From a virus (Duplodnaviria; Heunggongvirae; Uroviricota; Caudoviricetes): a stretch of DNA of 64,000 nucleotides. The translations under genes and the position numbers were made by a program. Numbering within the stretch: the first letter of the stretch is position 1; the number at the start of each line of letters is the position of its first letter. Under the pieces are notes generated by a model. The model had not been told where the DNA came from. It ran no database searches and saw only the letters and a list, made by a program, of their open reading frames with translations. Shown in pieces: positions 5,806 to 31,308 of the stretch. The stretch is from IMG/VR virus record IMGVR_UViG_2506381017_000002; one strand, written 5' to 3'.

Positions 5806-7326
5806 ATGACAAAACCGTATTTAGCAACAGATTTTTATAAAGTATCACATGCAATGAATCGACTAAATAAGCCGGCTCTTCACCCAGAAAGTATTGAATA
5901 TATTTATGAGGTGTTGACTCCACGTCAGAATTCATTCTTCCCATACGATGACAAGATGGTTGTGTTTGGCTATGAATTCTTTGTTGCACGTCTGTTGGGC
6001 GAATGGCAAACAGAGTTCTTTGACAAAGATTGGGAAGATATTAAGTTAGACTTTTATGTATTTTTCGAAATGTCAGATAGCCTTGTTTATCGTTCAATGG
6101 TTGAAAAACTCAAGCAATTACATGATTTGGGACATTTACCATTAGAAATTCGGTCATTGCCTGAAGGGTCATTAGTCCCAATGAGAGTTCCTGTGTTATC
6201 AATCAAAAATACTGATCCAGATTTCTATTGGCTTCCAGGTTTCTTAGAAACGACACTACTCGCAAATACTTTTGTAACAACTGGTACTGCTAGTGTGGCA
6301 CGTCAATTCCGTAAGATCGCTGAACATTATGGTGATGTTTCAGCAGACGATAAGGCTTATATTGATTTCCAATTCCACGACTTTTCACAACGAGGACAAC
6401 ATGGAGATGATGCTGCCGTTCTTTCTGGTATCGGACACTTGTCTAGTTTTAAGGGGACAGATGCAGTTCCAGCCGTAGATGAATTATTAAGAGTATATGG
6501 TGGACTTACCCCAGATGAACTAATCGGTGGATCAGTTGTTGCTACAGAACATTCAATTATGGAATCACTTGGTGGTGAATTTGGAACAGATAAGGAAGGT
6601 CAACTTAAAGCTTATGAGTCTTTAATAGATCGAAATCCAGATGGCGTCATTTCTGTTGTTTCAGACACCTACCAATATTGGGACGTTATTGATTATGTAT
6701 TGCCACAACTTAAAGAAAAGATTATGGCTCGTGATGGCAAGTTAGTTATTCGTCCTGATTCTCTTGATGAGTATCGTAAGGCGACTGGTCAAACTATTAA
6801 GTCTACTGAAGATCAATTAGTAACAACACTCCAGGCGTTATATGACACTTTCGGCGGCCATATTAATTCTAAGGGATACAAAGTGCTTGACCAACATATC
6901 GGATTAATTCACGGCGAAGGAATTACCCTAGATAATATTCGACCAATGTTTGATGCCATCTTAAATGCTGGTTTCTCTGCCGAAAATATTGTTTTCGGAT
7001 TAGGAGCTTATGTTTATTCCGTTAAGGTTTCACGTGATGATTTCGGACAAGCTTTGAAAGCTACCGCTTGCGTTATTGATGGTAAAGAGAAAGTTATTTT
7101 TAAGGCGCCTCATTCAAAAAAAGAAGCGTTCAAGCGTTCTCCTCATGGGGCGGTATCAATCCATGGTAAATCTGGGGAATATCATATGATTGAAAATTTG
7201 ACTATGGAAGAAGCAGCTAACGATAAAGATAATCAAATGACTTTGCTGTACAGTCCCAAATACGGTAATCGTGTCACATCATTACGAGATATTCGTCAAA
7301 AAATCTTAGATGGATTAGATAAGTGA
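5806..7326 (+). CDS. nadV: nicotinamide phosphoribosyltransferase family protein (NadV / candidate Namat)
   Basis: N-terminal LATDFYKVSH matches the NAMPT LATDSYKVTH signature. The protein is 506 aa with a strong AGGAGG RBS, 10 nt after the Prs-like gene. Confidence 0.8.
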   Translation: MTKPYLATDFYKVSHAMNRLNKPALHPESIEYIYEVLTPRQNSFFPYDDKMVVFGYEFFVARLLGEWQTEFFDKDWEDIKLDFYVFFEMSDSLVYRSMVEKLKQLHDLGHLPLEIRSLPEGSLVPMRVPVLSIKNTDPDFYWLPGFLETTLLANTFVTTGTASVARQFRKIAEHYGDVSADDKAYIDFQFHDFSQRGQHGDDAAVLSGIGHLSSFKGTDAVPAVDELLRVYGGLTPDELIGGSVVATEHSIMESLGGEFGTDKEGQLKAYESLIDRNPDGVISVVSDTYQYWDVIDYVLPQLKEKIMARDGKLVIRPDSLDEYRKATGQTIKSTEDQLVTTLQALYDTFGGHINSKGYKVLDQHIGLIHGEGITLDNIRPMFDAILNAGFSAENIVFGLGAYVYSVKVSRDDFGQALKATACVIDGKEKVIFKAPHSKKEAFKRSPHGAVSIHGKSGEYHMIENLTMEEAANDKDNQMTLLYSPKYGNRVTSLRDIRQKILDGLDK

Positions 7327-15039: not shown

Positions 15040-15193
15040 CTCAAAAAAAATATATCATACTCAGATTAAAAAATACGCAAATTTCAGTAATTACTGAAAA
15101 TGGAGTGAAATGCAGAAATTTTTGAAATTCTATTGACATCTTCATGTACAATACTAACTTTATAAAACATTCATTTTAGAAAATATTTGGCTA

Positions 15194-15202
15194 TGATATA
15201 AT
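15194..15202 (+). promoter_or_regulatory. extended -10 promoter TGATATAAT (copy 3)
   Basis: Context GGCTATGATATAAT. Confidence 0.35.
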
Positions 15203-15208
15203 AATAAT

Positions 15209-15292
15209 GTGCTATTTATCTCCCTAAGCGTAAATGGCATATTCATAAATAAATAACCCAGGAATCATTTCGGTTCCTGGGTCCCTTTTTAT
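15209..15292 (+). ncRNA. candidate small RNA (~85 nt) between the copy-3 promoter and its terminator
   Basis: No ORF; ends in the hairpin ACCCAGGAA-TCATTTCGG-TTCCTGGGT plus CCCTTTTTAT (15256-15292). Confidence 0.3.
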
Positions 15293-15551
15293 CTATATGA
15301 TATTTTTCACATTTTGTGCATAGTAAAAGACCGTCCTCGTATAACTTTGGCGAGTTGCAGGACGATCTTTTATTAGTTAATCTGTAACATGGCCACCGTC
15401 TTTTTAACGGGCCTGCTTTTTGCGTATCTATATTATAGCATGAAAGAAGGGAATTGAGTAGTCGGTGAATACTTAGTGAGGTGTTCATGAGTCTTTTGTG
15501 TTATAACCAGTCATTAAAATTTTTATTTTAATGCGACGAAAATAAGGCAAA

Positions 15552-15597
15552 CAAAAAAACACCATCTAATAAAGTTTTGACCGACTTTAGATGGTGC
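15552..15597 (-). terminator. rho-independent terminator (minus strand)
   Basis: CACCATCTA-loop-TAGATGGTG preceded by A7 on the top strand; the motif AAAAAACACCAT...ATGGTG.TTAGTCTC repeats at 15984-16032. Confidence 0.4.
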
Positions 15598-15679
15598 TTA
15601 GTCTCTACATTGTCTTATTATACACTATAGAAAAACTTAGTGTAAGTTGTAATCATTTAATTTCAAATAATCTTTCCTA

Positions 15680-15688
15680 TGATATAAT
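15680..15688 (+). promoter_or_regulatory. extended -10 promoter TGATATAAT (copy 4)
   Basis: Context TCCTATGATATAAT. Confidence 0.35.
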
Positions 15689-15820
15689 ATTTATGGATTA
15701 TAAGGAAGCGTTGGTGGTTCCTAATCTCTGGTTTATAATACTGGAGGTGCTGCCAATGAAAGCAGTTAAACAAACTTGACCCTAAGTTCAATTTTCGTAA
15801 GAAAGGAGAATGGCGGGTAA

Positions 15821-15970
15821 ATGAGTTTCAACAGCCTAGACCCATTTGAAGGCCTTGCAAAGGTTATTCGGGCTATGCGTGGACTCGATACCGGTGTGCA
15901 ATATGCCACCCTTGCCACATTTGTAATTGTGGTTGGCATTATTGCGTTTACTATTTGCTATACGCACTAG
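15821..15970 (+). CDS. small hydrophobic peptide (49 aa; holin or type I toxin-like)
   Basis: AAAGGAG RBS; MSFNSLDPFEGLAKVIRAMRGLDTGVQYATLATFVIVVGIIAFTICYTH with a C-terminal TM helix. Confidence 0.4.
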   Translation: MSFNSLDPFEGLAKVIRAMRGLDTGVQYATLATFVIVVGIIAFTICYTH

Positions 15971-15983
15971 CGTTAACAGCAAA

Positions 15984-16025
15984 TAAAAAACACCATTCGT
16001 GAGTTTAGCAGCGAACGATGGTGTT
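15984..16025 (-). terminator. rho-independent terminator (minus strand), repeat of the 15552 unit
   Basis: A-run plus an imperfect hairpin CACCATTCG...CGAACGATGGTG. Confidence 0.35.
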
Positions 16026-16082
16026 TAGTCTCAACGTCATTAAGAGATTAGGCATTATCAACAATACTTATTAATCTCAGGA

Positions 16083-16113
16083 AGAGCTATGCTGCAACAT
16101 AGCTCTTTTTGTT
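16083..16113 (+). terminator. rho-independent terminator
   Basis: AGAGCTATG-CTGCAA-CATAGCTCT plus TTTTTG; same loop as the hairpin at 11574. Confidence 0.55.
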
Positions 16114-16196
16114 TACACAAGTATTATAACATCTTATGTTCGTTACGTACATAAAAATTAAAAAATCTTCTTGACATTGTTATTTTGTAATAATTA

Positions 16197-16478
16197 CTAT
16201 GCTGCTTGCTCCATTTTAGTTAACTTAGTCCTCATCATTGCAGCTGCATGGCAATAAATTTCGTAACAAGGATCATCTTTTTCAAAGATTAATGCTTCGT
16301 TTAAATTAGGTGTCAAATATACTTCATTAACTTCAATATCAGAGGTCTTCATACCAAATCTACTCGTTAAGTGCTTGCCATCAACTCCACATACATATAA
16401 CTGTCCAACCTTGATTAAATAAAATGTCTCTTTTATAAGGATCACCGTTCCTCTCTTGGGGTATCTAAATAGTCCCAC
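16197..16478 (-). CDS. hypothetical protein (GTG start, uncertain)
   Basis: 93 aa with a non-ATG start. Confidence 0.3.
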   Translation of the reverse strand: MGLFRYPKRGTVILIKETFYLIKVGQLYVCGVDGKHLTSRFGMKTSDIEVNEVYLTPNLNEALIFEKDDPCYEIYCHAAAMMRTKLTKMEQAA

Positions 16479-16629
16479 AATAGCTGTTTTACAAATGGTG
16501 GAGCCGCATTAAAGTTAATTGCTGGTCGAATTAGCACATCTTTATTATCGCAAATACTAACCTCGACCTGTCCTCCAGCCATTTGTTCTAATCGTTGTTT
16601 AAATTCAGTTGCTAACAATTAACAACCTC

Positions 16630-16770
16630 CTAACTAACTTCTTTAACTAAGAATCCTGTTGCAATGATAATTGGGACAATAATAAATAGGCTGATACCAC
16701 CATATGCAATAGTAGATACGCCTAAAAACGCCAATATTACTAATAATGAAATAATTGCTGTGTAACTCAT
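16630..16770 (-). CDS. small membrane peptide (46 aa)
   Basis: MSYTAIISLLVILAFLGVSTIAYGGISLFIIVPIIIATGFLVKEVS; its ATG overlaps the upstream stop (TAATG). Confidence 0.35.
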   Translation of the reverse strand: MSYTAIISLLVILAFLGVSTIAYGGISLFIIVPIIIATGFLVKEVS

Positions 16771-17045
16771 TACGCCACCGCCCAATTAAATGTTTTTGCT
16801 TTTGACCGCAAATAATCTAGCTTTCCCCACATCATTTGTTTGTAATGTTTAGTAGCGTTAATTCCACAAAGATAATCTTTCGCGTCTTGAAACGAATCAA
16901 AAAACTCGTATTCACAGCACATAGTAGATAAGTTTTCTATGAAATGATAGAGCTCTAATGGATTCTCTGTATTTACCACGTCCCAATAATCTCTTTTAAG
17001 GTACGATGGACTTTCTGAAGTGGGCTGGACTAAAATAATTTTCAT
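16770..17045 (-). CDS. hypothetical protein
   Basis: 91 aa. Confidence 0.45.
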   Translation of the reverse strand: MKIILVQPTSESPSYLKRDYWDVVNTENPLELYHFIENLSTMCCEYEFFDSFQDAKDYLCGINATKHYKQMMWGKLDYLRSKAKTFNWAVA

Positions 17046-18327: not shown

Positions 18328-18936
18328 TTAGAACACCTTCCCGTCGTAAGGCTTGAACATAACATCGTGGAAATCAAAATCTCTCGCTTCGCTTAATGTA
18401 ATAATTCGAGTATTGCCACAACCGACCATCAAATTAAGCGGAATATCTTTTTCATCATCAGGAATGATCAAAATATTTGGCTTGTGTAAAGCATAAAGTA
18501 CCCCTTGTTCATACGTCTGACCAACGTCTGGTTTACTTGGCATAAATAATCCAATACCCATTTCCATGCCATACATTGCGTGCATATCCATTTGGTATGT
18601 ATTCTGTTGCCATTCACGGTCTCCCATTACTTCTGGGTGTTCATTTACATCAATGTCATTGTATTGATGGCTTAATGGGTGGTGACTGTATTGCAATGAA
18701 ACCGATGGATTTTGGCCTAATGCTTCTAATCCTTTTTCCATAAAATCAATTTCTTCTGGACTGAACCACGAGCATTGAATATATGCGCGGACTGCCGAAA
18801 CGCCATTATGAACTACTACATCTTCATATTTGCGCCCTGCTAATTCAACGGAGCCGTTTTGTACTGGCAATCCTCCAGCAATAGCCTCCAAGAATAATTT
18901 ACTTATTTCTGGTTGATGTGTGTTTTCTTGTGCCAT
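18328..18936 (-). CDS. nucleoside 2-deoxyribosyltransferase
   Basis: Aligns by eye with lactobacillus NDT: ...YSHHPLSHQYNDIDVNEHPE..., GMEMGIGLFMPSKPD...YALHKPNILIIPDDEKDIPLNLM...DFDFHDVMFKPYDGKVF at the C-terminus. Confidence 0.8.
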   Translation of the reverse strand: MAQENTHQPEISKLFLEAIAGGLPVQNGSVELAGRKYEDVVVHNGVSAVRAYIQCSWFSPEEIDFMEKGLEALGQNPSVSLQYSHHPLSHQYNDIDVNEHPEVMGDREWQQNTYQMDMHAMYGMEMGIGLFMPSKPDVGQTYEQGVLYALHKPNILIIPDDEKDIPLNLMVGCGNTRIITLSEARDFDFHDVMFKPYDGKVF

Positions 18937-25957: not shown

Positions 25958-26024
25958 TGGGACGGGTGGGATTCGAACCCACGACATTGTGCACTTGTTC
26001 TACCAAACTGAACTACCGACCCTG
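25958..26024 (-). pseudogene. tRNA-like element (truncated anticodon arm; probable tRNA pseudogene)
   Basis: Acceptor GGGTCGG/CCGTCCC with one mismatch; D arm GTTC-AGTTTGGTA-GAAC; T arm GTGGG-TTCGAAT-CCCAC. Only ~65 nt, with about 8 nt missing between the D and T arms. Confidence 0.4.
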
Positions 26025-26295: not shown

Positions 26296-26440
26296 TTGAT
26301 CCTATACGCCAGAGGTAGGACTCGAACCTACAAAATCTATAGCATTTTGTGACTATGGAGTAGACGGGAGTCGAACCCGTGTCCAACCAAACCAGTTTCC
26401 AAATACATTTTAGACTTATTAGGATTATGTACTTAATTCT
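26296..26440 (-). other. two abutting tRNA-like elements of non-canonical structure
   Basis: T-arm-like CACGGG-TTCGACT-CCCGT plus CTACTCCA at ~26356-26400, directly followed by hairpin ACAAAAT-GCTATAG-ATTTTGT plus T arm GTAGG-TTCGAGT-CCTAC plus CTCTGGCG at 26307-26355. No matching 5' acceptor strands were found. Confidence 0.3.
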
Positions 26441-26791
26441 TAAATCAAAATAGTCACATAATCATTTTCCAAAGACTATTTTAATCGATCTAGTTTTAAT
26501 ACTTAGTCACACTTAAACTAGCAAATCATGAACTAAGACCAGAGGGGTGAAATGTGATAGCTAGTATCCTTATCTGGTATCAAGATATTAACCAAGTGCC
26601 TATAAGCTAGGCAGCTAAAGCTGTAACTCTATGGTTATTTGCTTTTATATTTAAATGAAAGTATTTCGGCGTTATCTTCCGTAAGTCGTATTTAGGGCTT
26701 TATTTGACTGTCGAATCCATAAACTACCCCAGAATAGAGCTTTAAATCATAGCTCCAAATAATAATTCAAATAGACTTCTTGATGAAGTCT

Positions 26792-26865
26792 ATAACATAG
26801 AAGGGATTTGAACCCTTGCTCTTACCCGCTAAGATAAAGCTCTACCAAGCTGAGACTTACTATGT
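26792..26865 (-). tRNA. tRNA-like gene (74 nt; perfect acceptor and T arm, internal arms not resolved)
   Basis: Acceptor AACATAG/CTATGTT 7/7, T arm AAGGG-TTCAAAT-CCCTT, D-loop-like CAGCTTGGTAGAGC. I could not fold the anticodon arm by eye. Confidence 0.45.
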
Positions 26866-27209
26866 TACTTATATATCAAAATATTTCTTGTGGTGGAACC
26901 CCTAACAGCTTTTGCCTTATTCCACATTTATTCCTACTAGCTTCATAGGATGGGCATAGTCCTTATCCCTGCTAAGGGGGCGCTGTCGTTACTCGCTGAA
27001 TATTTTAATATGTTCTTGTTAAGGGAGACTCATTTCAAGACCTCAACATCGGTCGGTTGAATGACTACTTACGCGCTAAGGATGTATACTATCCTTTCAT
27101 CATCTTCCCACCTGGTAGCTAACCCCACTCACGGATTCCGCACATGACTACGCTCCGTCAGCGAATATTGTACCTGTCTTTTATAAAATCCTGATTTTAA
27201 AAACCAGAA

Positions 27210-27428: not shown

Positions 27429-27515
27429 AACTACGAAGACAGGATTCGAACCTGCAACCTAGGATCAAGTTTTATCGGTGTACACCCCTATGCTCTAGCC
27501 AATTGAGCTACTTCG
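27429..27515 (-). tRNA. tRNA-like gene (~87 nt, long-variable-arm type; anticodon unresolved)
   Basis: Acceptor TACGAAG/CTTCGTA 7/7, D arm GCTC-AATTGGCTA-GAGC, T arm GCAGG-TTCGAAT-CCTGT; 36 nt between the D and T arms that I could not fold unambiguously. Confidence 0.4.
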
Positions 27516-27888
27516 TAAGAATAATGTCCACCCAGAAACGTTAGATGGTGAACTGATAAGTTAAGAGCTTGTTGACTGTGCTAAGTATCAGTCTGATTAC
27601 TCTTAGAGCTTATATCTTTTTGATGGACATTGACTTAGCAATTCTGTCCACGAATGATTAATTAGTAGGTTTACCACCAACCTACCTTGTAGAAACGCCG
27701 TTAAGCTTTCGTGGTCATGGTCACTCATTCTACTTTCACGGGGTTTGCCATGACACAAGCCGCTTGGTTTTTCTTAATAGCCTGACTAGGGCTACCAAAA
27801 TACAACAACTACCAATGGGCAGTGAAACGCCATGATTTAGGCGTATATCCAAATTCACTTGGTGTTCTCCTTGCATACCAAGGAGAAT

Positions 27889-27950: not shown

Positions 27951-28800
27951 AACATAATACATGTATCGTTTTCGTTACTGTATTTTTACGTGCCAGTTGA
28001 AAACTGTTAATAAAAGTCGCAATGCACGGGCCCGTAGGCCATTGCCGTTTTGATAGGCTCGGCAACCTCTATATAAGACCGTTTTATTTTAACGGTGACG
28101 GTGCACCCCATCATTCAACCAATTAAGAGAGGGTTGATTCTCTCGACAATAACTGTCGATTAAGGAGTCAAGCTCCACGTTAATCTGATTAATCTTTAAC
28201 AAGACAGCCTCTTTCTTATCTGTCATACCTATTTCTTTTGCATTCACACGAACACCGAGGTGGGTAATTATTCTGTATTTCGAAGCCCTACGTGAGCCGT
28301 AATCAGATTTTATAAAAGAAGCATTTTACAGATGTATCTCCGTATGTTTATAGGGCTGGGCGCTGATTTAACAATATCTAGCCGATTTCAAGAGGTGATC
28401 AACCCCTCTAGCGCACTTGTTCATCGGGTATCCAACATGTCTCGTCCCGGGAAGCCCACACTTCCAGTGTAAGAGACTATATCTTCAAATACTTCCCGCC
28501 ATTAAATGACTTGCAATCTTATGTTTGTATTATTCAGGGTGTAGATTACTAGATCACCCGAACCCGCAACCTGAGAATTAAACCCAGCATTAACTTAGGC
28601 AATATCTGCATCGCAGGTAGTCGCACACGCAACCATAACAATAAGAAGCGTGGCATCAATCACATTACGAGCATTAGAAACTCCTCCAGTTGTGAGTAGG
28701 ATACCTCGTATAAATCACATTACTGCCATTTATACTCAAGCGCTTCAACCGACATACCTGTTGCCGGTTTTCCTATTATACATATCCATATAACAGAAAC

Positions 28801-28885
28801 ACCTAGAGAGGGATTTGAACCCCCGAACCCGAAGGAACGGTTTTGGAGACCGTCGCGTTTGACCAGACTTCGCTATCTAGGTATT
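28801..28885 (-). tRNA. tRNA with long variable arm and anticodon CCA (85 nt)
   Basis: ACCTAGA-TA-GCG-AAGTCTGGTCAAA-CGC-G-ACGGT-CTCCAAA-ACCGT-TCCTTCGGGTTC-GGGGG-TTCAAAT-CCCTC-TCTAGGT-G. The acceptor is a perfect 7/7, the D stem is 3 bp (class II like) and the variable arm is 12 nt. A UGG reader with class II architecture is unusual. Confidence 0.6.
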
Positions 28886-29037
28886 AATAACGTGCCATGC
28901 CAGCGTAAACACGTTATTAGATCGAATTGAAAAATGTAAAGGTAAAGGTATATGGAAAATATAACCTATTGAACATACGTTAGGTGTTTTTACATTCCAA
29001 ACGTTTTCCGTCATTTGGAACAACCTATTACTAGGAA

Positions 29038-29110
29038 TTTCGGTAATGGGAATCGAACCACATATCTACACTACATAATGTTGCTCTACCATTGAGCTAT
29101 ACCGAACCTT
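29038..29110 (-). tRNA. tRNA-like gene (T stem imperfect)
   Basis: Acceptor TTCGGTA/TACCGAA, D arm GCTC-AATGGTA-GAGC, anticodon-like ACATT-ATGTAGT..., but T stem TGTGG/CCCAT is mismatched. Confidence 0.3.
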
Positions 29111-29573: not shown

Positions 29574-29728
29574 TTACTCCTGAAATGTTGAAGTGATCAT
29601 TTGATCTGTGTGATTTATTAACGGGTCGCAACTGCGTTGCTCCTCATCAACGATATCTATAATAACCCAAATAAAAATATTTGTCAATTGATTTACCTAC
29701 AATTTAATATAAAATATTTTTGTTGTGT

Positions 29729-30558: not shown

Positions 30559-31308
30559 TTATTGTACTTTATTTGGGCGCCAGTTGATCTTACCTACTAT
30601 CGCTGTTGCCGTGTAAAATAGCGTCATAGCAAGCATTGGTAACGCAGCCTGAGAATATCCATCCTTAAGTGCAGTAAACCATAATAGTACGTTCACAAAA
30701 TCAGAAATCAACCATAATGTGTATGTTGTTGAATATTGCCGGAAACATAACCAACTAGCCGTTCCACCAATAGCAAGTGCCAATGCGTCCCAAAGAGGGT
30801 TTGTATCATGAAGATAGATTCCAACATAATAAAGCACAAACCAAGCTGCTAAGATTGCAACAATTACATATAACCAGCCCATCTTAGTTAATCCTTTAAT
30901 TTCCGTACTCTTACCGCTCCATGTACGCCAATTCTTTAACAAAGGTAAATCAATCAAGAATAGAAATACCAGTTGATCTAAGACACTCCAATAATGGCCG
31001 GCACTAACATTGATAATGACATAAGCAATTACAGAAATACTTCCAAGCAATCCATTAATAGCATGACTGGATACTCGATTTCCTTCTGAATCATATCCAC
31101 CTGCGCCCATAGCAACTGTACACCACATACCAAAGAATATTCCGATAAATGATACAACCGCAATCCAATTAATTGGGTTTAATAACAGAATAGCTAATTG
31201 AAATCCTACGCCAAATCCAAATAGTGCCCAGGGGAACCGATCCCAACCTGTTAATTCTTCTTTTAACCATTGAAGATAAGTACCTTCAAAACGATATGCT
31301 TTATCCAT
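30559..31308 (-). CDS. multi-pass membrane protein, possible PnuC-like nicotinamide riboside transporter
   Basis: 249 aa with about 7-8 TM helices and W/N/G-rich helices typical of the NMN_transporter family. Its size fits PnuC (~230-250 aa). The call is tentative and motivated by the NAD genes elsewhere in the window. Confidence 0.4.
   Translation of the reverse strand: MDKAYRFEGTYLQWLKEELTGWDRFPWALFGFGVGFQLAILLLNPINWIAVVSFIGIFFGMWCTVAMGAGGYDSEGNRVSSHAINGLLGSISVIAYVIINVSAGHYWSVLDQLVFLFLIDLPLLKNWRTWSGKSTEIKGLTKMGWLYVIVAILAAWFVLYYVGIYLHDTNPLWDALALAIGGTASWLCFRQYSTTYTLWLISDFVNVLLWFTALKDGYSQAALPMLAMTLFYTATAIVGKINWRPNKVQ

Follow-up and report, generated by a model that had tools for sequence, protein, structure and literature searches.

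A Limosilactobacillus reuteri phage-plasmid tRNA gene with tryptophan-type identity nucleotides on a tyrosine-type class II scaffold

In bacteria, transfer RNAs (tRNAs) with a long variable arm are by textbook rule limited to those for leucine, serine, tyrosine and selenocysteine. A tRNA gene can also change its amino acid by remoulding, an alloacceptor shift after duplication that is known from organelles and some bacteria, in which a paralogue is recruited to another amino acid by substitutions in the anticodon and the identity elements; the known cases lie mostly within one structural class. The tyrosyl- and tryptophanyl-tRNA synthetases (TyrRS and TrpRS) are themselves paralogous class Ic enzymes. 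A long class-II-type arm combined with the anticodon of a class I amino acid is described for the nev-tRNAs of nematodes, the nov-tRNAs of eukaryotes and the allo-tRNAs of bacteria, which keep Ser or Leu identity and are mistranslating or inactive; some allo-tRNAs are charged and yet unused in translation (PMC5389517). Here we describe a tRNA gene with anticodon CCA on the minus strand of a 64,000-nucleotide stretch of viral DNA (Caudoviricetes; IMG/VR record IMGVR_UViG_2506381017_000002), called the window below, which is part of a Limosilactobacillus reuteri phage-plasmid. The gene has in common with the nev-, nov- and allo-tRNAs the long arm, the anticodon of a class I amino acid and a location in an irregular cluster on a mobile, phage-borne element, but its acceptor-end identity has been switched to fit the anticodon, and unlike most remoulded tRNAs it has crossed the boundary from class II to class I. 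We consider it probable that the gene encodes a UGG-decoding, TrpRS-charged tryptophan isoacceptor on a remoulded tRNA-Tyr scaffold, which would give the phage-plasmid its own supply of tRNA-Trp.

The gene and its cloverleaf

The gene occupies 28800-28882 on the minus strand, where Infernal matched the tRNA family RF00005 over the full length of the model (positions 1-71) with 56.7 bits (E=2.2e-10; gathering score 29) and ARAGORN called tRNA-Trp(cca) at 28799-28883. An earlier note, made from the letters of the window, had placed an 85-nucleotide (nt) tRNA at 28801-28885. There is indeed a tRNA gene at that place, but it lies on the minus strand with its ends 1-3 nt away, and although 85 nt is the length of the ARAGORN call, the mature tRNA has 83 nt without the terminal CCA. 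This CCA is not encoded, nor is it in the other array tRNAs called by ARAGORN. The full RNA reads ACCUAGA-UA-GCGA-AGUCUGGUCAA-ACGC-G-ACGGU-CUCCAAA-ACCGU-UCCUUCGGGUUC-GGGGG-UUCAAAU-CCCUC-UCUAGGU-G and is made up of the following parts (bp, base pairs):

28800..28882, minus strand: complete class-II-architecture tRNA gene with anticodon CCA (Infernal RF00005, ARAGORN)
28876..28882, minus strand: acceptor stem, 5' strand ACCUAGA, with A1 C2 C3 U4 in place of the GGAG of tRNA-Tyr and with A5 G6 A7 kept (alignment to tRNA-Tyr)
28855..28873, minus strand: D arm GCGAAGUCUGGUCAAACGC, 3-bp stem with an A.A mismatch and a large loop, 19/19 identical to tRNA-Tyr(GTA) of loci L143-L147
28837..28853, minus strand: anticodon arm ACGGU-CUCCAAA-ACCGU, with U31-A39 where tRNA-Tyr has A31-U39
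28844..28846, minus strand: anticodon CCA, reading UGG (Infernal, ARAGORN)
28825..28836, minus strand: variable region UCCUUCGGGUUC, containing a cUUCGg mini-hairpin, tRNA-Tyr-type variable arm, 12/12 identical to the tRNA-Tyr of Staphylococcus and of phage phi6255
28808..28824, minus strand: T arm GGGGG-UUCAAAU-CCCUC, T stem identical to that of tRNA-Tyr L151
28801..28807, minus strand: acceptor stem, 3' strand UCUAGGU, with U72 (Infernal, ARAGORN)
28800, minus strand: discriminator G73, where tRNA-Tyr has A73 (sequence, Infernal, alignments)

The acceptor stem has 7 bp, every one a Watson-Crick pair, and is followed by U8 and A9. The D stem consists of three pairs (G10-C25, C11-G24 and G12-C23) with A13.A22 mismatched, closes the loop AGUCUGGUCAA and is followed by G26. 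Five base pairs, the usual number, form the anticodon stem; a G26.U44 pair could be added to them, and the stem carries a perfect 7-nt loop with U33 and A37. The 12-nt variable region forms the hairpin CC-UUCG-GG, the residues of the tertiary interactions (U8, A14, G15, G18G19 and C48) are intact and the T loop is canonical, the T arm carrying the motif GTTCRANNC. The 3-bp D stem, large D loop and 12-nt variable region of the earlier note thus appear again in the layouts of Infernal and ARAGORN, and so does its anticodon loop CTCCAAA with anticodon CCA, as the two programs concur in the register and the Infernal posterior is maximal throughout the loop. ARAGORN draws an eighth acceptor pair, U(-1).G73, but this is an artefact, drawn for all four array tRNAs that it called because each has T at -1.

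Tyrosine-type body and tryptophan-type identity nucleotides

The 83-nt tRNA was compared by sensitive blastn with 50,697 phage records (2.3 gigabases), and 63 of these gave matches. The annotated features under the matches listed were tRNA-Tyr throughout, including those of Streptomyces and Mycobacterium phages, the sole exception being a weak tRNA-Trp match (72.9%) in Rhodococcus phage Peregrin; ARAGORN likewise gave tRNA-Tyr(gta) for the host-type Listeria, Enterococcus and Staphylococcus contigs and for the unannotated phage matches phi6255 and TPWB06. Megablast of the region against INPHARED gave no match. The exact D arm, GCGAAGTCTGGTCAAACGCG, is present in genuine tRNA-Tyr(GTA) genes having G1-C72 and A73. 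A 27-nt motif spanning the variable and T arms, TCCTTCGGGTTCGGGGGTTCRAATCCC, was found in 25 IMG/VR contigs, three of which belong to the same L. reuteri element family, and all 22 unrelated ones carry it in a tRNA-Tyr(GTA). In the best of these motif-bearing tRNA-Tyr genes (L151) 62 of 83 positions are identical, and the 21 differences include nine in pairs 1-4/69-72 and N73, two at anticodon positions 34/35 and two in the 31-39 pair. Region by region, identity to tRNA-Tyr is complete in the D arm (19/19) and the variable region (12/12), as against 0-3/7 in the acceptor strands, 0/1 at N73 and 1/3 in the anticodon.

Profile hidden Markov models (HMMs) were also made from phage Tyr, Ser and Leu tRNAs, and classified 94 of 98 correctly on leaving one out. 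With the anticodon masked the gene scored 29.9 bits with Tyr, 22.5 with Ser and 12.7 with Leu. Unmasked, the gap between Tyr and Ser was narrow (27.9 and 26.1 bits), and the top score, 42.0 bits, went to the set of phage class II CCA tRNAs described below. The decisive support for Tyr ancestry comes from the exact-motif scans and alignments and not from the isotype HMMs. By these alignments the core of the gene is evidently that of a bacterial, Bacillota-type tRNA-Tyr. With the tRNA-Tyr of Bacillota and Actinobacteria that has the variable arm UCCUUCGGGUUCG it shares, identically or nearly so, the D arm, position 26, the backbone of the anticodon stem, the variable arm, the T arm and pairs 5-7. 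The earlier note had spoken of a Ser/Leu/Tyr/Sec-type architecture; class II holds, and Tyr, which it named only generically, is the nearest. The outcome that it set against its own reading, namely an assignment to Ser or Leu with another anticodon register, was not what emerged, the register being confirmed and the nearest class II isotype being Tyr.

The positions that synthetases read tell otherwise. The major identity elements read by bacterial TrpRS are anticodon CCA, discriminator G73 and A1-U72 as the first acceptor pair, and U31-A39 is a predicted Trp determinant (PMC9976931, PMC5370408). Bacterial TyrRS relies on A73, U35, G1-C72 and the variable arm, A73 and U35 being critical (PMC9976931, PMC5370408), and binds the arm through an S4-like domain (PMC5370408). 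For the seryl- and leucyl-tRNA synthetases (SerRS and LeuRS), antideterminants have been reported in E. coli, where G73 of tRNA-Ser acts against TyrRS and LeuRS and C2-G71 of tRNA-Leu against SerRS (PMC9976931). The window tRNA has all the Trp features listed (CCA, G73, A1-U72 and U31-A39) and both antideterminants (G73 and C2-G71). Compared with tRNA-Tyr, GUA has become CCA, A73 has become G73, G1-C72 has become A1-U72 (in fact all top four acceptor pairs differ) and A31-U39 has become U31-A39, and of the tested Tyr identity elements only the variable arm is left. Since the core is of Tyr type and the changes at identity positions amount to the bacterial Trp set, the gene most likely descends from a tRNA-Tyr and was recruited as an isoacceptor that reads UGG and is charged by TrpRS. 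The remoulding would have left in place the D arm, with its 3-bp stem and large loop, the short variable arm capped by UUCG, the T arm and the lower part of the acceptor stem, and would have replaced the positions read by synthetases, namely the anticodon, N73, the top four acceptor pairs and the 31-39 pair.

Canonical class I tRNA-Trp, as in E. coli and B. subtilis, has in common with the window tRNA the loop CUCCAAA, U31-A39, G73, A1-U72, the 7/5 geometry and UGG reading, whereas the 12-nt hairpin of the window tRNA takes the place of a variable region of 4-5 nt and its 3-bp D stem with an 11-13-nt loop that of a 4-bp stem. The pairs G2-G4 of the B. subtilis acceptor stem are also absent. 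Compared with bacterial tRNA-Ser only G73 is shared, the 12-nt variable region, A1-U72 and C2-G71 being different, and the A73 of tRNA-Leu, whose HMM gave the lowest score (12.6 bits), is G73 here. A tRNA for selenocysteine has 8/5 geometry, a 6-bp D stem with a 4-nt loop and anticodon UCA, as against 7/5, 3 bp and CCA here, and allo-tRNAs have acceptor and T stems of 8/4 or 9/3 bp and a long D stem (PMC5389517), as against 7 bp, 5 bp and a 3-bp D stem; both assignments were rejected.

Coverage of the window by long open reading frames (ORFs) is 0.670 in the standard code, 0.718 with TGA as a sense codon and 0.714 with TAG as one. TGA is the stop of 12 of the 76 ORFs, and TGG makes up 1.34% of the codons. 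As reading TGA as sense gains essentially no more than reading TAG as sense, and TGA serves as a stop, nothing suggests that a stop codon has been reassigned or that selenocysteine is involved. Of the options in the earlier note, an unusual Trp isoacceptor is the one favoured by C34 C35 A36, G73, A1-U72 and U31-A39 on a class II body. The discriminator to which it had drawn attention is G73 (window position 28800, G, minus strand), and the UGA and UGG usage that it raised is that of the standard code. Its other option, a recoding or opal suppressor tRNA of Sec-like architecture, is not supported, given the 7/5 geometry, the 3-bp D stem, the sense-codon anticodon and the codon usage.

Ten copies of the gene were collected, one in the window and three each in PLSDB plasmids, IMG/VR contigs and metagenome contigs, and nine of them were aligned. 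In the ten copies changes are confined to the D loop, and no other tRNA of the array is as well conserved. Mean pairwise identity in the nine is 99.3% for the tRNA, as against 92.4% over 700 nt on its upstream side and 58% on its downstream side; the tRNA call is no chance match. The pair of tRNA-Arg(TCT) and the class II Trp gene is present in every copy, while the Met, Asn, Gly, Thr, Phe, Ile, Gln and Cys tRNAs vary. This conservation is consistent with purifying selection on the class II Trp gene, although the argument is a modest one because the nearest 400 nt upstream are also 94-98% conserved. In the related plasmid YLR001 a class I tRNA-Trp(CCA) with an A1.C72 mismatch and G73 (L130 5385-5458) is present in addition to the class II gene. 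The window tRNA has no sequence similarity to this class I tRNA-Trp in the D, variable and T arms (D arm 4/19, T arm 2/17).

If the gene is a Trp isoacceptor, it would be transcribed together with the minus-strand tRNA array of the phage-plasmid, cut at its 5' end by RNase P (with U at -1), trimmed at the 3' end and given its CCA by the host enzyme; it would then be charged with Trp by the host TrpRS and read UGG in the standard code. Besides the conserved upstream flank, several points weigh against this. B. subtilis TrpRS is reported to need G2-C71, G3-C70 and G4-C69 for efficient charging (PMC9976931), and the window tRNA has C2-G71, C3-G70 and U4-A69 instead, although these efficiency pairs are absent from the class I phage tRNA-Trp of YLR001 too. 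Tryptophan has a single codon, and codon bias, by which phage tRNAs are usually explained, therefore offers no rationale here. The copies within the family are too alike to give covariation support, and the array includes clearly degenerate tRNA-like genes, so that some of its members need not work.

These degenerate neighbours make a different fate conceivable, in which the gene is a decaying relic or a tRNA-like RNA outside translation, serving as a decoy or regulator, for example by titrating a toxin or feeding a Trp T-box. Several tRNA-like genes of the array (29038-29106, 25958-26022 and 27431-27517) are without a usable anticodon loop, MazF- and RelE-type toxins are encoded by the element, and the allo-tRNAs that are charged without being used in translation provide a precedent. 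However, unlike in its degenerate neighbours the 7-nt anticodon loop of this gene is perfect, U33 and A37 included, its seven acceptor pairs, tertiary residues and T loop are intact, it is the best conserved tRNA of the array in ten copies, and a coherent switch to the Trp identity set is not expected of a relic. We regard this explanation as unlikely. The switch also bears on a missense tRNA, in which the old Tyr or Ser identity would be kept and Tyr or Ser inserted at UGG in the manner of nev- and allo-tRNAs. The core, including the variable arm bound by the S4-like domain of TyrRS, is that of tRNA-Tyr (PMC5370408), G73 and a long arm are the main elements of SerRS (PMC7609411, PMC5389517), and SerRS and LeuRS ignore the anticodon (PMC11028032). 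Yet the positions required by TyrRS are exactly those that have changed (A73 to G73, G1-C72 to A1-U72, U35 to C35), and G73 is an antideterminant for this enzyme. For SerRS the variable region is too short, since its 12 nt fall below the range of 15-23 nt (median 18) that phage tRNA-Ser of the same dataset shows, and A1-U72 and C2-G71 replace G1-C72 and G2-C71, C2-G71 being a reported SerRS antideterminant. A coordinated change to the complete Trp set would be surprising if the old identity had been kept, and missense charging is accordingly very improbable.

A Trp-charged tRNA could also differ in what it reads. Precedents for tRNA-Trp reading UGA are the Hirsh suppressor and a tRNA-Trp with a 4-bp anticodon stem, and a foreign D arm and core could relax decoding in the same sense, so that CCA would read UGA as well. 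The D arm is wholly unlike that of normal tRNA-Trp, and altered-body variants of tRNA-Trp(CCA) that read UGA are known (PMC13092985). Here, however, the anticodon stem has its normal 5 bp, with the possible G26.U44 pair in addition, and the TGA stops and ORF coverage given above leave UGA reading with hardly any likelihood. A Trp isoacceptor that decodes UGG is the reading that we prefer, at the probable level stated at the outset.

The tRNA array of the phage-plasmid

PHROGs matches in the window include RecD/exonuclease V, DnaB, nicotinamide phosphoribosyltransferase (NAMPT), a methyltransferase, an integrase and partition proteins. The sole species-representative genome carrying this tRNA is L. 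reuteri ATCC 53608, on plasmid p53608_1, and three L. reuteri megaplasmids of 129-139 kilobases (kb) are about 92% identical across the tRNA region. PGAP annotation of the 129-kb relative FN041 lists a terminase, tape measure protein, holin, RepA, ParM, the MazF and RelE toxins, ArdA and a replicative polymerase; no aminoacyl-tRNA synthetase appears in this annotation. The array runs on the minus strand from about 29564 to 25958 and contains tRNA-Arg(TCT), tRNA-Met, a transfer-messenger RNA (tmRNA) and several degenerate tRNA-like genes. Two features lie upstream of the class II Trp gene:

29659..29687, minus strand: best sigma-70-like match (11/12, by consensus only), TTGACA-17-TATTAT, heading the array ahead of tRNA-Arg(TCT), on its upstream side
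28885..28919, minus strand: perfect 10-bp inverted repeat TAATAACGTG / CACGTTATTA with a 15-nt loop, ending 2 nt upstream of the 5' end of the tRNA (repeat search)

The first is a candidate promoter for a polycistronic transcript that would include the class II Trp tRNA. The hairpin of the second is conserved in all copies and invariant in six aligned ones. On the tRNA strand it lacks a downstream run of T, and a terminator is therefore less probable than a leader structure.

The content of the array is different in each copy of the element, and some of its members are irregular. Three tRNA-like genes on the minus strand have no usable anticodon loop: 29038-29106 (51.8 bits), with the 4-nt loop AUGU on its anticodon stem; 25958-26022 (49.0 bits), in which the whole anticodon arm has shrunk to AGUGCACA; and 26793-26866 (33.7 bits). 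Counterparts of at least 29038-29106 and 25958-26022 are kept in the related plasmids L129-L131. These anticodon-less genes could be decoys, processing elements or relics. At 27431-27517, on the same strand, 21 nt stand in place of the 7-nt anticodon loop and ARAGORN gives a 4-base anticodon, 'tgta' (Thr/Tyr); an intron or another small insertion could account for this, or the tRNA could be defunct or of a frameshifting type. In sister plasmids (L129 2487-2562; L130 3170-3245 and 3660-3755; L150 8362-8437) unusual tRNAs were seen as well, among them a tRNA-Phe(aaa) with the loop CGAAAUG, lacking U33, a 'tRNA-Cys(aca)' and a 96-nt tRNA-Ile(tat) with a long variable arm.

The tmRNA lies inside the array at 26353-26730 on the minus strand (75.4 bits; tag peptide ANNHRVTALAA) and is conserved in FN041, YLR001, ATCC 53608 and one metagenome copy. 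FN041 also encodes a 720-amino-acid 'RNA ligase' (L134 19291-21450), which may act in RNA or tRNA repair; tblastn found no match to it in the window, where the matching interval, about 15150-17020, is some 3.5 kb shorter. Genes for nicotinamide phosphoribosyltransferase, a PnuC transporter, nucleoside 2-deoxyribosyltransferase and deoxynucleoside kinase lie at 5806-7326 (plus strand), 30559-31308 (minus strand) and 18328-18936 (minus strand). These genes for nicotinamide adenine dinucleotide and nucleotide salvage are auxiliary metabolic genes of the phage-plasmid.

Other class II CCA tRNAs of phages and what they may mean

IMG/VR was scanned with a pattern consisting of CTCCAAA, a spacer of 18-33 nt and GGTTCRAWTCC, which gave at least 120 matches, and candidates were confirmed with ARAGORN. 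At least 62 distinct CCA tRNAs with a variable region of 9-21 nt, that of the window included, were obtained from phage contigs. Among the matches listed, and with the other isotypes taken from the same loci, the identity positions were distributed as follows:

Class II CCA: G73 in 54/62; pair 1-72 A-U in 25 and G.U in 17; U31-A39 in 61/62
Tyr: A73 in 19/22; G1-C72 in 19/22
Ser: G73 in 27/37; G1-C72 in 34/37; G2-C71 in 32/37
Leu: A73 in 37/39

U72 is thus present in at least 42 of the 62 class II CCA tRNAs listed. A variable-arm stem of at least 3 bp was found in 87% of them, compared with 50% of shuffled sequences, and a GNRA or UUCG tetraloop in 52%, compared with 1%; the arms are evidently real hairpins. 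In some contigs (L104, L105) a class I and a class II CCA tRNA are next to each other. The nearest class II relative in this wider set was mixed, being Ser for 23, Tyr for 19 and a long-armed Cys tRNA for eight among the matches listed, with others besides, and for this reason neither a single origin nor general descent from tRNA-Tyr is claimed for the wider set.

Cultured phages show related forms. In Brevundimonas phage Kabachok an 82-nt 'tRNA-Trp' combines a D arm of class II type with a variable region of only 8 nt, and in the cultured Caulobacter jumbo phages, Caulobacter phage CcrBL9 (L141 2496-2582) carries an 87-nt 'tRNA-Lys(CUU)' on a Ser/Tyr-like class II scaffold. In the IMG/VR loci L004-L122 a variable region of at least 9 nt was found in 12 of 31 His, 9 of 29 Asn, 6 of 19 Cys and 8 of 42 Lys tRNAs, proportions which are biased and are not population frequencies, as these loci had been chosen for their class II CCA tRNAs.

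The annotation of the gene as tRNA-Trp was already known, since the genome paper of ATCC 53608 has a tRNAscan-SE 'tRNA-Trp' among the plasmid tRNAs, its structure not being remarked on (PMC4667477), and its job is likely an ordinary one. A full-text literature search brought up no account of a phage or bacterial tRNA-Trp of class II; new with respect to the literature searched are the bacterial-type Trp identity on a class II scaffold, the Tyr-to-Trp remoulding and the abundance of such tRNAs in phages.

The choice of a class II scaffold may reflect neutral remoulding inside a fast-evolving tRNA array. Alternatively, the foreign scaffold could be of advantage, as it makes the phage tRNA-Trp unlike that of the host for nucleases or other factors that read the tRNA body, an idea that we put forward tentatively and regard as possible though doubtful. 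To our knowledge, no nuclease targeting tRNA-Trp is known for L. reuteri. The idea builds on an earlier proposal, in which the tRNAs of phages escape host defences directed at tRNA (van den Berg 2023, PMC10264068; Azam 2024, PMC11555353). There, too, the phage carries a copy of a host tRNA species that differs in sequence from the host's, but the differences are substitutions in the anticodon loop, whereas in the window tRNA the loop is of the canonical kind and the difference lies in the scaffold as a whole. More broadly, and with rather greater doubt, a widespread class of phage tRNAs might exist in which a class I identity (Trp, and apparently His, Asn, Cys and Lys) sits on a class II scaffold and is selected for evading host factors that recognise the body, such as nucleases and further toxins that modify tRNA, while still being charged by the cognate synthetase.

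A full Trp identity set on an intact tRNA-Tyr scaffold runs contrary to the textbook rule on long variable arms. Were the tRNA charged with Tyr or Ser after all, a phage would be carrying a tRNA that mistranslates, a still more surprising outcome. If it is charged with Trp, then a class II body is acceptable for this amino acid to TrpRS, EF-Tu and the ribosome, and the gene would represent a natural switch from Tyr to Trp identity between the tRNAs of two paralogous synthetases, as well as a naturally occurring scaffold on which orthogonal Trp tRNAs could be engineered. A further question is whether phages swap tRNA scaffolds as an escape from tRNA-targeting defences.

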